Origin: an uncultured delta proteobacterium
Lineage (GTDB): Bacteria; Myxococcota_A; Polyangia; Haliangiales; Haliangiaceae
Assembly (NCBI GenBank): GCA_963772655.1
Contig: CAVYYE010000003.1
Location: 2,545,341-2,609,340 of the forward strand
DNA: 64,000 nucleotides
Reading direction: 5' to 3'
The translations under genes were made by a program, and so were the position numbers. Numbering within the stretch: position 1 is the first letter of the stretch; the number at the start of each line of letters is the position of its first letter. Below are positions 49,277 to 54,535 of this stretch, piece after piece. The notes under the pieces are model-generated. The model saw only the letters and a list, made by a program, of their open reading frames with translations, had not been told where the DNA came from and ran no database searches.

Positions 49277-50687
49277 CCCCGGAGTTGCGCATCGCACGCG
49301 ACCGCTGGAACGGCCCGAACACCGAGGCAAGGTCGGAGGGATCGATGCCGGGTCCGTGATCGGCGATCGAGATCCGCGCGCGTTCCCCCCTGCGCTCGAC
49401 GCCGACCTCGATCGGCCCGCGAGGGGCGTACTTGATCGCGTTGCCGAGCAGGTTCTCGATGACCTGCTCGATGCGGAGACGGTCCCACGTGCCGTTGACC
49501 CCACCGTCGTGGTCGACGTGGATCGTCGCCTCCGCTCGTGTCGCAAGCTCGGAGAGACGATCGACGACCTCTTGCACGGCATCGACCAGATCGAAGGGTT
49601 GGCAGTGGAGCGTCAATCGTCCCGTCGCGAGACGCGAAAAATCGAACAGGCTATCGATCAGGTTGACGAGTCGATTGCCTTGCCGCATGGCCGAATCCAC
49701 CTTGCGGAGCATGACGTCCGCCGACACTTCTTTCGCGATGTCGCTGTTCAGACTGCCGAGTCGAAGCTGGAGGGTGGTCAGCGGGGTGCGCAGCTCGTGG
49801 GATGCGATCGATAAGAACTCGTCGCGCTCCTGGACGGCCTTCTCCGCCGCGCACACCGCGCGCTTGAGCCCGTCGCAGTCGGTGAACGTACCGAGCCAAC
49901 CGACCATCTTGTCGTCCTCGATCTCGGGCACGGCGCGGCAGAGATGCCACCCGGACTCGCCATCGCGGTGGCGCAACCGGCACTCGAATTCGAACACGGT
50001 GTGGCTGGTCAGCCGCTGGTGCCAATCCGCCGCCCAGGTCTCGGCGTCCTCGCACTCCACCGCGGCCATCCATCCGAACTGCTTGGCATCGACCGCGATC
50101 TGCCCGGTGTATTCGTACCAGCGTCGATTGAAGTACATGACGGCGCCGTCGGGCGATGCCGTCCACACGATGTGAGGGATCGCCTCCGCGAGATTTCGGT
50201 AGCGCTGCTCGTTCGCGGCGCGAATCGCGAGCAGCTCGTTTTCCAGTTCGCGGCGCTCGGCGGCGCGGAGCGCCTTCGCCTGCTCCTGGATCTGGAGATC
50301 CTTGCGAAATAGCTCGACGAAGATCGCGACCTTCGCACGCAGCACGTCGGCGTCCAGCGGCTTCATCAGGTAATCGACCGCTCCGACGGAATAGCCACGG
50401 TAGATGAGGTCGATATCGGGACCGCCCGCCGTCAAGAAGATGATCGGGGTGTAACGCGAGCGCTCGCGCTGTTTGATCGTCTTCACGAGCTCGAAGCCAT
50501 CCATGCCCGGCATCATCACGTCCACGAGGATCACGGCGAAGTCGCGTTCGAGGATCCGGCGAAGCGCATCGGGCCCCGAGGACGCGCGCACGAGGTCATA
50601 GTCGTCTCGCGCGAGGATCGTCTCGATCACGAGCAGATCCTCTCGGCGATCGTCGACGAGCAGGATCTCGACCGGGTTCGCCGTCAT
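49149..50687 (-). CDS. Response-regulator receiver, PAS and histidine kinase fusion protein
   Basis: ATG at 50687 overlaps the stop of the upstream giant kinase (ATGA). Receiver domain ILLVDD...DVMMPGMDG...KP. A PAS-like segment follows. The H-box is ASHELRTPL and HATPase motifs are DHGPGI and GGLGLGL. Confidence 0.85.
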
Positions 50688-53600
50688 TGCTCCTCGCGCG
50701 CACGCATCACCCACGACCGCAACACGGACAGGAGCCGGTCGAGATCGACCGGTTTCGCGATGTAGTCGGACGCGCCTGCCTGGATGCAGTTGTCGCGATC
50801 CGTCGGCATCGCCTTCGCGGTCACGGCGATCACCGGAAGGTCGGCGAATCGCGGCTTCGAGCGAATCTGGCGGATCACGGTGTAGCCGTCCATCTCGGGC
50901 ATCATGATGTCCATGAGCACGATGTCGACGTGGTGGGCTTCGAGCGTGCTCAGCCCATCTCGACCGTTCTCCGCCGACAGGACCGAGGCGTGGTACGCCT
51001 CGAGGACGCTCGTGATCGCGAAGATGTTTCGCACGTCGTCGTCGACGACCAGCACCGTGACGCCCTCGAGGTCCGGAGCCTGATCGCGGGGTAGCACCGG
51101 TGCCTTCAGCACCGGCGGTTCGTTCGAGAACGCGACCTCGCTCGTCGGCGTGCGGCTGATCGCGGCCTCGACCATCGCGGAGTGATCCGGTAGGTACAGC
51201 GTGAACGTGCTCCCCACACCGGGCTCGCTGACCACCCCGATCTCGCCACCGAGGCTGCGCGCGATCTCGCGGCTGATCGACAAGCCGAGCCCGGTTCCGC
51301 CATAGCGCCGGCTCGTCGTCCCGTCCGCCTGCTGGAACTCCTCGAAGATGATGCGGTGCTTGTCCGCCGGGATCCCGATGCCGGTGTCCGCGACAGCGAA
51401 CGCGATCACCGCATCGGCCTCGTCGAGGAACCGATTTCCGCGGCTCCAGCCGTCGTGCGCGGCGTGGATGTCCACGTCGACCCGGCCATGATCGGTGAAC
51501 TTGAACGCGTTGGAGAGCAGGTTCTTCAGGACCTGCTGCAGCCGCTTGGCATCGGTACGAAACTCGAACGGAAGGGTCGAACCGAGCCGGATTCCGAACT
51601 CGAGGCGCTTCTGATGCGCGACGTGCCGGAAGTTCTGCTCGAGGTAGTCGGCGAGACCCGGAAGGTCGATCGTTACCGGTTCGATCGAGATCGTGCCCGA
51701 TTCGATCTTCGAGTGATCGAGGATGTCGTTGATCAAGCCGAGCAGATCCGTGGCACTGCCGTGGATCGTGCGGGCGAACTCGACCTGCCGAGGCAGCAGA
51801 TTGTTATCGGAATTGTCGGCGAGCATCTTCGACAGGATCAGCAGGCTGTTGAGTGGGGTCCGCAGCTCGTGCGACATGTTGGCGAGAAATTGGGACTTGT
51901 ACTTCGAGGTCAAGGCGAGCTGCTCGGCCTTGTCCTCCAGCTCTTCCTTGGCGAGCTCGACCTCGCGGTTCTTGACCTCGAGCAGCGTGGCCTTTTCGCC
52001 GAGCTGGTCGTTGGTCTGCGTCAAGACCTCCTGCTGCTGCCGGAGCCGGTCCTCGGACTCGCGCAACGTACGTGCCTGGTGCTCGAGACGCTCGTTGGTC
52101 TGTCGCAGCTCCTCTTGCTGGGACTGCAACTCCTGCGTCAGGGACTGCGACTGCTTGAGCAGCCACTCGGTTCGCATGCCTGCCGCGATCGTGTTGATCA
52201 CGATGCCGATGCTCTCCGTGAGCTGATCGAGAAACTTCTCGTGGATCTCCGAGAGCGGCTGAAAGGAAGCGAGCTCGATCACGGCGTTGACCGTCCCCTC
52301 GAACAGCACCGGCAGGATCAAGAGGCTGAGTGGCGGAGCCTCGCCGAGCCCCGAGCTGATCTTGACGTAGTTCCCCGGAACCCCAGCGACGATGATCTTG
52401 CGCTTGTCGAACGCGCACTGGCCGATCAAGCCCTCCTTCAGCTTGAAGGTCGTCGGCACGTCGTCGCGCTGGCGATAGCCGTAACTCGCGAGCAGCTTGA
52501 GGGTGGTTTCGGGCGATGTCTGCTCGTGTTCGCGATCGGACAGATAGATCACGCCGTGCTGTGCCGATACGAGTGGCGCGAGCTCGGAGAGGATCTGTTG
52601 GGCCACGGTCTCCAGGTCGCGCTGCCCCTGGAGCATCCGGGTGAACTTCGCCAGGTTGGTCTTCAGCCAGTTCTGTTCCGTGGTCTTTTGGGTGGAGTCC
52701 TTGAGGTTCCGGATCATCTCGTTGATGCGCTCCTTGAGCGCCGCCACCTCTCCCGAGGCTTCGACCGAGATCGATCGTGTGAGGTCGCCCTTGGTCACCG
52801 CGGTCGCGACATCGGCGATCGCGCGCACCTGGGTGGTCAGGTTGCCCGCCAGCTGATTGACGTTGTCCGTCAACGCGCGCCATGTCCCCGCGGCTCCCGG
52901 GACCTTGGCCTGGCCTCCGAGCTTGCCTTCGACGCCGACCTCGCGTGCCACCGACGTGACCTGATCGGCAAACAGCGCGAGGGTGTCGATCATGCCGTTG
53001 ATGGTCTCTGCCAGCCGCGCGATCTCGCCTCGCGCTTCGAGCGCGAGCTTGCGATTGAGATCGCCACCGGCGACCGCGGTAACCACGGTCGCGATACCGC
53101 GCACCTGATTGGTGAGGTTGGTCGCCATCGAGTTGACGTTGTCCGTGAGGTCTTTCCACGTGCCGGCGACACCGCGGACCTGTGCCTGACCACCGAGTTT
53201 GCCCTCGGTCCCGACTTCGCGTGCGACGCGTGTCACCTCGGACGCGAACGCGTTGAGCTGATCCAGCATCGTGTTGATCGTGTTCTTGAGCTGCAGGATC
53301 TCGCCCTTGACGTCGACCGTGATCTTCTTCGACAGATCGCCATTCGCGACCGCCGTCGTGACCTCGGCGATGTTGCGCACCTGAGAGGTCAGGTTCGACG
53401 CCATCGAATTGACGTTGTCGGTGAGGTCTTTCCAGGTACCGGCCACCCCCTTGACGTCTGCCTGGCCACCGAGCTTGCCCTCGGTGCCGACCTCGCGGGC
53501 GACGCGCGTGACCTCCGATGCGAAGGCGTTGAGCTGATCGACCATCGTGTTGATCGTGATCTTGAGCTGCAGGATCTCGCCTTGGACATCGACGCTGATC

Positions 53601-54535
53601 TTCTTCGACAGGTCGCCGTTCGCGACCGCAGTCGTGACCTCGGCGATATTGCGCACCTGTGACGTCAGGTTCGATGCCATCGAATTGACGTTGTCGGTGA
53701 GGTCCTTCCACGTGCCGGCGACGCCCTTGACATCGGCCTGGCCGCCGAGCTTCCCCTCGGTACCGACCTCGCGTGCGACACGCGTGACTTCCGACGCGAA
53801 CGAGTTGAGCTGGTCGACCATCGTGTTGATCGTGGTCTTCAGCTGCAGGATCTCGCCCTTGACGTCGACCGTGATCTTCTTCGACAGATCACCACGCGCG
53901 ACCGCGATCGTGACCTCGGCGATGTTGCGAACCTGGGCGGTCAGGTTGCCCGCCATCAGGTTGACGTTGTCGGTGAGGTCCTTCCACGTGCCGGCGACAC
54001 CGCGCACCCGTGCCTGACCTCCGAGCTTGCCTTCGGTGCCGACCTCGCGGGCGACCCGCGTGACTTCCGACGCGAACGACGCGAGCTGCTCCACCATGCC
54101 GTTGACGACCTTCGCGGTGTGGAGAAACTCGCCGCGCAACGGTCGGCCTTCGAGCTCGAGCGTCATCGTCTGCGACAGGTCTCCCGACGCCACCGCACCG
54201 ATCACCCTGCCGACATCGGTGGTCGGCATCACGAGGTCCCCGATCAACCCGTTGACCGACTCCACGCAGCTACGCCAGCCTCCTCCGGCGTTGCCGAGCA
54301 CCTCCATTCGCTGATCGAGCTGCCCTTCCTTGCCGACGCCCACGGCCAGGCGCTCGAGCTCGCTCACCATGTGCTGGTTCTGCTCGATCACCGAGTTGAG
54401 AAGGCGTGCCACCTCTCCTTCGGTGCCGTCGCTCGCGACGGGCATGCGCACCGAGAAATCACCCGCCTCGAGAGCGCGCAACACCGCGAGCAAATCGCTC
54501 GGGGCCTGATCGACGGGCCGTGCGTGCGTCAGCAC
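50684..54535 (-). CDS. Poly-HAMP hybrid sensor histidine kinase: tandem HAMP array, GAF-like domain, HisKA, HATPase and C-terminal receiver (about 1283 aa)
   Basis: GTG start at 54535, 7 nt after GGAGG, overlaps the upstream stop (GTGCTGA). There are 5-6 near-identical units of about 92 aa, [22 protein letters not shown]...[29 protein letters not shown]-box [10 protein letters not shown]. HATPase DTGIGI and [10 protein letters not shown]. Receiver [16 protein letters not shown]...KP. The first 338 or so codons of the track ORF are Arg-rich shadow and are excluded. Confidence 0.85.
52840..54220. repeat. Tandem repeats of about 276 bp encoding the poly-HAMP units
   Basis: At least five near-identical DNA units, for example gttgacgttgtcggtgaggtc(t/c)ttcca(g/c)gt(a/g)ccggc recurring. 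Recombination-prone. Confidence 0.8.

Follow-up and report, generated by a model that had tools for sequence, protein, structure and literature searches.

The locus described here raises the question whether a row of closely similar repeats in a histidine kinase is a recent tandem amplification or an old array held in place by selection, and with it the question of what kind of kinase carries the row. The locus lies in a stretch of 64,000 nucleotides (nt) from an uncultured delta proteobacterium of the family Haliangiaceae (assembly GCA_963772655.1, contig CAVYYE010000003.1, positions 2,545,341 to 2,609,340 of the forward strand). We refer to this whole stretch as the window and give all coordinates in it. 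The repeats are pairs of HAMP domains in a hybrid histidine kinase encoded on the minus strand. With a probability of roughly 0.85 we consider the gene to encode a cytoplasmic, presumably dimeric, kinase-associated poly-HAMP hybrid histidine kinase of the AskA/OsaA type, with an array that is old and under selection.

A search with hidden Markov models (HMMs) finds the Pfam families HAMP (E 9e-52), HAMP_2 (E 9e-48), GAF_2, HisKA, HATPase_c and the receiver family Response_reg in the protein, the last four all exceeding the Pfam curated cut-offs. This bears out a first-pass annotation, made from the letters of the sequence, that had read the gene as a hybrid kinase with a tandem array of double HAMP units and a GAF domain. 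The catalytic and phospho-acceptor residues are complete and comprise the H, N, G1, F and G2 boxes of the kinase and the DD, D, T and K positions of the receiver. The same annotation had allowed that the repeats might prove unlike HAMP domains; that they are HAMP-like follows from the Pfam score and from a match to crystal structures. Residues 14-293 match the PDB entries 9TRK (E 1.2e-124) and 9TRJ (E 3.6e-72), both annotated 'histidine kinase, Gcn4p', which are a 6-HAMP and a 4-HAMP fragment of Myxococcus xanthus AskA (MXAN_0712; Coles et al., Protein Sci 2026, PMC13446029). Identity to the AskA fragments is 74% over 279 aligned residues, with 62% in the head of the array and 88% in the first core module.

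Kinase-associated poly-HAMP arrays consist of a canonical HAMP of type D1 and repeated modules of a non-canonical C and a canonical D2 HAMP, and are followed by GAF, DHp and CA domains and one or more receivers, their HAMPs belonging to groups C and D (PMC13446029). The proteins are soluble and widespread in bacteria, and they also occur in fungi, as the group III kinases, and in Amoebozoa; hallmarks of the family are a Gly at the junctions between HAMPs and, in the third HAMP, a Pro kink with a hairpin insertion (PMC13446029). In the kinase of the window we find the D1 head, C-D2 modules of constant length, the order GAF-DHp-CA-receiver, no transmembrane segment, and the Trp, Pro and insertion hallmarks. 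Judged by its sequence, the kinase is a further, fairly divergent member of a described and structurally characterised family. The 120 top homologues have the same architecture, with 10-17 modules and mostly 13.

Five units of 92 amino acids (276 nt) lie in register at residues 154-613 (52697..54076). Tandem Repeats Finder reports a period of 276 for the array, with 3.6 copies and 85% matches, and a repeat search finds five copies spaced 276 nt apart that are 65-83% identical to the reference copy. We made an HMM of the five in-register units; it picks up a sixth, divergent one at residues 58-152, and in total six modules over residues 58-612, each composed of one non-canonical and one canonical HAMP. 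Together with a single HAMP at the N-terminus (residues ~10-57), the six di-HAMP modules add up to 1 + 6 x 2 = 13 HAMPs. The earlier count of at least five units of about 92 residues is therefore right for the part in register, and it had missed the divergent sixth module and the lone N-terminal HAMP. A Trp opens the second helix in all six non-canonical HAMPs (residues 87, 184, 276, 368, 460 and 552), and HAMP3 carries a kink at Pro104 and a linker insertion ([12 protein letters not shown]), both of which align to AskA. Across 57 sequences Pro104 is invariant and Trp87 nearly invariant. An AlphaFold2 monomer model of residues 1-260, whose secondary structure is informative but whose global confidence is poor (mean pLDDT 67, pTM 0.41), predicts helices at residues 10-23, 38-66, 86-116, 135-164, 181-213 and 228-257 and the strands of a small beta-hairpin at residues 127-132; the output helix of each HAMP runs unbroken into the next input helix in this model, as it does in AskA.

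The protein had been predicted to be soluble on account of the lack of an obvious transmembrane segment, and the prediction stands. A Kyte-Doolittle scan over 19 residues finds no membrane segment in the kinase; its single peak (1.78, residues 735-756) falls inside the GAF domain and includes Glu and Asn, so that the protein is predicted to be soluble. A dedicated N-terminal sensor domain is also lacking: some 9-13 residues precede HAMP1, the alignment to AskA beginning at residue 14 and the first helix of the model at residue 10. The coding sequence begins where it had been placed, in an overlap with the upstream gene for a receiver-kinase (REC-HisKA-HATPase). The GTG at 54535, with GGGAGG four bases upstream, shares 7 nt (GTGCTGA) with the TGA of that gene, and the commonest N-terminal length in 113 homologues falls within 0-4 residues of this start. 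We rejected the longer mechanical open reading frame (ORF) at 50684..55549 (minus strand, 1621 amino acids), whose first ~338 residues are an Arg-rich, out-of-frame reading over the upstream gene and not protein. This extension (54536..55549, minus strand) and the long shadow ORFs at 51356..53662 (plus strand, 768 amino acids) and 51804..53711 (minus strand, 635 amino acids), all of which overlap the kinase gene, are products of the high G+C content and not genes. The G+C content itself is 0.61-0.64 across the kinase gene (51500..54000) compared with 0.66-0.69 in the flanks, with a strongly negative AT skew; this is probably a consequence of the repeats' amino-acid composition and not of foreign origin.

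The first-pass annotation further described the repeat units as almost identical even in their DNA, and it took this as a sign of recent expansion and of ongoing potential for recombination. The DNA does not agree with that description. Numbered from the first in-register unit, units 1-3 are 88-96% identical among themselves in amino acids, 84-89% in nucleotides and 69-75% at third codon positions, and units 4 or 5 compared with any other unit are 61-73%, 66-72% and 50-61% identical, respectively. Nucleotide identity thus ranges from 66% to 89%, and the longest identical in-register run between any two units is 50 nt. By the Nei-Gojobori method, units 1-3 are separated by 0.40-0.57 synonymous substitutions per synonymous site (dS), with a ratio of nonsynonymous to synonymous change (dN/dS) of 0.04-0.21. 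For pairs that include unit 4 or 5, identical amino acids share a codon about as often as would be expected from independent draws on the codon usage of the gene itself, and these two units are near synonymous saturation.

Such divergence is hard to reconcile with an array that arose as a recent, unstable tandem amplification of near-identical DNA copies prone to recombination. Some traits of the array do lean that way: units 2 and 3 are 96% alike in amino acids compared with 92-93% to any outside unit, the core units use the same codon at identical amino acids 58-62 times where 42-46 would be expected at saturation, and there are identical runs of 29-50 nt in register. The authors of PMC13446029 regard the likeness of the repeats within an array as compatible with intragenic amplification, and they point out that related arrays vary in the number of modules. 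The comparison with units of other proteins points in the opposite direction. In a set of 1650 units taken from 240 homologues, the core units are 91-93% identical in amino acids to units from other phyla, for example those of Pedosphaera parvula (Verrucomicrobiota, P0085) and of the cyanobacterial-type proteins P0116 and P0117, and this cross-phylum identity equals most of their identity to one another. The penultimate unit is 72-73% identical to the core units of its own array, yet 87-88% identical to GAF-proximal units of other family proteins, including the penultimate unit of P0107 (87%). The terminal unit shares 61-64% of its residues with the other units of its own array and 95% with the last unit of P0107 and of P0124. 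The last two units therefore match their positional counterparts in other proteins, which indicates a conserved layout of a head, a variable number of core modules, a penultimate module and a terminal module.

The same pattern of like proteins and diverged DNA is found outside the window. The closest pair of modules in each of 65 arrays from species-representative genomes is 67-97% identical in nucleotides and never reaches 98%, even where the amino acids are 95-100% identical, although the assemblies behind this comparison are biased against perfectly identical repeats. In one array (L077), a top pair with 100% protein identity shares 88% of its nucleotides and 66% of its third positions. The maximum in the array of the window, 89.1%, is in the upper-middle of the distribution (about 21st of 66). 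Protein sequences that have stayed the same while the DNA diverged, here and in the 65 other arrays, indicate an unusually strong constraint on every module. The cross-phylum identity of the core modules and the positional counterparts of the last two likewise point to selection and not to recent expansion. We conclude that the likeness of the modules is due to strong purifying selection on an old array, and we regard recent amplification as very improbable. The constraint is also unevenly spread along the protein: between phyla the core di-HAMP module keeps 91-93% amino-acid identity, compared with only about 47-59% for the GAF-kinase-receiver part of the same proteins. The HAMP scaffold is under much tighter constraint than the enzyme part.

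A different objection is that the number of modules might be an artefact of assembly, either through collapsed copies or through a mis-joined array. Most homologues retrieved by the non-repeat parts of the protein (P0121-P0360) are partial proteins broken inside the HAMP array at contig ends, which shows that poly-HAMP arrays routinely break short-read assemblies. In the window, however, the reading frame is intact throughout the array, the modules follow the canonical order of the family from head to terminal module, and their number is within the family range. The five units differ pairwise by at least 11% in DNA and share no identical run above 50 nt, so that reads or k-mers longer than about 50 nt would resolve them. 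An artefact is accordingly very improbable.

Poly-HAMP arrays had been called rare in bacteria, and the distribution of the family contradicts this. Relatives were sought in a protein database, in species-representative genomes and in metagenomes, and the two collection scans yielded at least 598 and at least 592 confirmed members. They come from hundreds of species in about ten phyla, which include Cyanobacteriota, Actinomycetota, Acidobacteriota, Verrucomicrobiota, Planctomycetota, Gemmatimonadota, Pseudomonadota, Nitrospirota and Myxococcota, and the family has published crystal structures. Nor does the label 'giant' fit the protein. The module count in 50 complete genes from representative genomes is 4-16, with modes of 11 and 7, and six modules in 1283 amino acids are at the short end of this range, although not exceptional.

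It has been proposed for AskA and AskB that the HAMP array also serves to bind DNA, through partial motifs resembling the helix-turn-helix (HTH), so that the protein acts directly at promoters. AskB, and AskA in one assay, bound PmrpC DNA in vitro, and HTH_6/RpiR (PF01418) and SpoIIID (PF12116) are among the precomputed domains of the homologues. A SpoIIID match also overlaps the HAMPs in the kinase of the window, at 21.2 bits where the cut-off is 27. All the HTH-like matches are below the Pfam curated cut-offs, however, and the matched helices belong to four-helix HAMP bundles in the AskA crystal structures. A positively charged extension at the N-terminus, as in FrzCD, is absent as well, with only 9-13 residues before HAMP1. 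We therefore give a DNA-binding array very little weight, and we treated the sub-threshold Pfam matches on the HAMP helices (SpoIIID, Trypco1, PseudoU_synth_1 and PylD_N) as spurious. JGI gives the label 'methyl-accepting chemotaxis protein' to a few short fragments of the N-terminus in the database, which would point to a chemoreceptor-type poly-HAMP protein, from the independently evolved family with HAMP types A and B. That identity is refuted by the domain content, as there is no MCPsignal match in Pfam, GAF, HisKA, HATPase_c and REC come after the array, and the direct match is AskA.

Several observations weigh against assigning the kinase to the AskA/OsaA type with its attendant function. 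Among the matches listed, the closest relatives are 52-59% identical in the GAF-kinase-REC part and, for full-length matches, up to 65% identical in the head, so that function is transferred across a large distance. The AlphaFold2 monomer (pLDDT 67) has no PDB match at E <= 0.001 by Foldseek in a library that extends to April 2026 and predates 9TRK. No histidine phosphotransfer (HPt) domain was seen in the gene cluster, and the route of phosphotransfer outlined below is inferred. The input signal is a guess that rests on analogy.

Among known systems, M. xanthus AskA and AskB (MXAN_6735) and Sorangium cellulosum Amb07 share with the kinase the soluble array of a D1 HAMP and 92-residue C-D2 modules and the succession GAF-DHp-CA-REC. 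AskA has in common with it the Pro kink and hairpin insertion of HAMP3, the interface Trp and the junction Gly. The numbers differ, with 13 HAMPs here compared with 21 in AskA and 31 in AskB, and one C-terminal receiver here compared with at least three in AskA, where a 'Rec3' is named. Directly downstream of askB lies the gene of AskC, a receiver-containing hybrid kinase that interacts with AskA and AskB (PMC7643160), and the REC-PAS-kinase gene directly downstream of the kinase in the window resembles it by position.

In Streptomyces coelicolor OsaA/OsaB (SCO5748/SCO5749) the gene after that of a cytosolic hybrid kinase with more than ten HAMPs encodes, as in the window, a receiver that bears a helical extension; OsaB is the receiver/coiled-coil partner of OsaA in osmoadaptation (PMC9739842). 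At the Streptomyces loci of the family, which from the published description we infer to be OsaA/OsaB orthologues, the downstream receiver and that of the downstream gene here share 59-60% identity. The Streptomyces partner consists of receiver and coiled coil only, whereas the window has this receiver as part of a fusion with PAS-HisKA-HATPase, and the Streptomyces arrays have 10 high-scoring modules in proteins of about 1860 amino acids compared with the six modules here.

The fungal group III kinases (Nik1, Os-1, Bos1 and TcsC) are soluble proteins with a repeated HAMP array and are placed in the same class by PMC13446029, a relation that we take from the literature only. Their array has been implicated in osmosensing and in fungicide action (PMC13446029, PMC7643160). 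They differ in being eukaryotic, in having shorter arrays that lead directly into kinase and receiver, and in feeding the HOG pathway via a Ypd1-type HPt protein; the window is bacterial in character, with sigma-54 activators, overlapping genes and ORFs of translation table 11. Pseudomonas aeruginosa Aer2 likewise has concatenated HAMPs with alternating packing, and it matches the kinase weakly both in sequence (E 0.0025) and in fold. Its HAMPs are few and dissimilar and are interrupted by a PAS-haem domain, its output is of the methyl-accepting type, and PMC13446029 terms it 'multi-HAMP' and not poly-HAMP.

The features of the kinase and of the gene cluster around it are collected in Table 1.

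Table 1. Features of the poly-HAMP kinase gene and its cluster, in window coordinates; domain limits and functions are predicted
Feature	Residues	Position	Strand	Details and basis
Poly-HAMP hybrid histidine kinase, coding sequence		50684..54535	-	1283 amino acids, GTG start, TGA stop
N-terminal 9-13 residues and HAMP1 (canonical, D1 type)	1-57	54365..54535	-	aligns to AskA HAMP1 in PDB 9TRK
Divergent first di-HAMP module, HAMP2-3	58-153	54077..54364	-	unit HMM, residues 58-152, 44.6 bits
Three core di-HAMP modules, HAMP4-9	154-245, 246-337, 338-429	53249..54076	-	repeat comparison
Penultimate di-HAMP module, HAMP10-11	430-521	52973..53248	-	repeat comparison
Terminal di-HAMP module, HAMP12-13	522-613	52697..52972	-	repeat comparison
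GAF domain	638-780	52196..52624	-	Pfam GAF_2 E 2.6e-17, GAF E 1.5e-9
Gln/Glu-rich coiled-coil linker, GAF to DHp	781-879	51899..52195	-	read from sequence
HisKA/DHp domain	880-947	51695..51898	-	phospho-acceptor His889 (SHELRTP); Pfam and motif check
HATPase_c domain	995-1117	51185..51553	-	N, G1, F and G2 boxes; Pfam and motif check
C-terminal receiver	1161-1272	50720..51055	-	Asp1165/1166, acceptor Asp1209, Thr1239, Lys1261; Pfam and motif check
Downstream REC-PAS-HisKA-HATPase_c gene		49149..50687	-	512 amino acids; OsaB-type receiver at residues 8-120, then VLRAKVxxFVEL helix; Pfam and synteny
Upstream REC-HisKA-HATPase gene		54529..55674	-	Pfam; neighbour specific to this genome
Sigma-54 enhancer-binding protein, first gene of the cluster		55696..57036	-	probable pseudo-receiver N-terminus; Pfam

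Four genes are tightly packed on the minus strand, in the order sigma-54 activator, REC-HisKA-HATPase, poly-HAMP kinase and REC-PAS-HisKA-HATPase. The ATG of the last gene, at 50687, overlaps the stop of the kinase (ATGA), which suggests that the two are translationally coupled. To follow this neighbour in other genomes we used the first 140 residues of the downstream protein as a tblastn query and took the true ORF ends of the homologous kinases as their ends, the longer homologues carrying extra receivers. In 59 of the 79 genome loci the best receiver match lies on the same strand as the kinase, -22 to +350 nt from its stop, with 42-60% identity and 95-162 bits; generic receivers score just 51-67 bits with the same query. 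The metagenomes give a similar picture, with an OsaB-type receiver directly downstream in 59 of 77 loci and within 2.5 kb in 7 more. The Streptomyces downstream receiver, searched against the window, matches 50265..50669 with 60% identity and 151 bits (next-best receiver 65 bits) and is a reciprocal best hit. Conservation of the OsaB-type receiver directly downstream makes it a likely phosphorylation partner of the poly-HAMP kinase, and the downstream REC-PAS-kinase of the window is its probable cognate partner. Neither the REC-kinase gene upstream nor that of the sigma-54 activator is a conserved neighbour: none of 51 loci has them.

What is fused to the OsaB-type receiver varies. The outputs include PAS-HisKA-HATPase (in a metagenome-assembled genome of the Myxococcales, as here), HisKA-HATPase, a PAS-HWE kinase, PAS-HisKA_3 and a GAF-kinase, and in Streptomyces there is a helical tail alone; in most of the ten loci examined the output is a second histidine kinase. 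In addition, 13-15 of 80 genome loci (among them L005, L008 at L008:13089-13943, L020, L028, L034, L039, L041, L043, L046, L047, L058 and L060) have a gene for a CheR-like methyltransferase directly after that of the poly-HAMP kinase, and in several of these it is situated between the kinase and the OsaB-type receiver. The 64-kb window contains no CheR-like gene. These neighbours are a hint that methylation tunes some poly-HAMP kinases, in the manner of chemoreceptors. Neither the OsaB-type receiver nor the CheR association is discussed in PMC13446029, and a limited literature search found no description of them. We propose, at odds that we would put slightly short of even, that the poly-HAMP kinase is accompanied, across about ten phyla, by a downstream OsaB-type receiver mounted on a lineage-specific output and may stand at the head of a conserved cascade from kinase to kinase, with the CheR subset hinting at tuning by methylation.

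The AskA structures and the model put forward in PMC13446029 suggest how the kinase may work. The dimer would form a continuous four-helix rod of 13 stacked HAMPs, along which x-da and da-x packing would alternate and in which canonical and non-canonical HAMPs would hold alternating, opposite states of helix rotation. A shift of this equilibrium would be passed through the GAF domain and the coiled coil of ~100 residues to the DHp domain and would set the autophosphorylation of His889. The linker that forms this coiled coil contains a motif, AKEELEDK, conserved enough to serve as a search pattern for the family. Synteny and the lack of an HPt domain in the cluster suggest that the phosphoryl group would then pass to Asp1209 of the same protein and to the downstream OsaB-type receiver, and the conserved gene order suggests that this receiver would control the second kinase, giving a cascade of two kinase tiers. 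Our best guess for the input, which we advance as a tentative one and a little less likely than the alternative that the cue is of another kind, is an intracellular osmotic or solute-stress cue, because of the analogy with OsaA/OsaB, with fungal Nik1 and with the responses of AskA, AskB and AskC to glycerol and ambruticin.

The surroundings of the cluster are rich in signalling genes. The N-terminus of the sigma-54 protein at the head of the cluster is short and receiver-like ([10 protein letters not shown]...[10 protein letters not shown]), lacks the acceptor Asp and gives no Pfam receiver match at E < 0.01, and the protein is probably a pseudo-receiver activator; another sigma-54 activator is encoded at 44196..45509 on the minus strand. 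The window as a whole, at 66% G+C, is dense in signalling genes (25814..27757, 32280..35147, 40221..42404, 45706..46809, 57224..58465 and 60174..61349), among them two TPR-bearing Ser/Thr kinases, a double-FHA protein and several hybrids of receiver and kinase. Taken with the two sigma-54 activators and the G+C content, these genes suggest a myxobacterium-like genome. Exact look-ups of the kinase sequence and of the sigma-54 activator sequence gave no recorded entry. The window contains no tRNA, and scans for promoters, terminators and sigma-54 promoters gave results at chance level throughout.

These results bear on how such genes are read. The protein of the window can be annotated with confidence as a soluble poly-HAMP hybrid kinase of the AskA/OsaA type. 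The near-identity of di-HAMP modules in protein should be checked at synonymous sites before a recent amplification is inferred from it. For the family as a whole, the conserved OsaB-type receiver is a concrete candidate for the output of bacterial poly-HAMP kinases.

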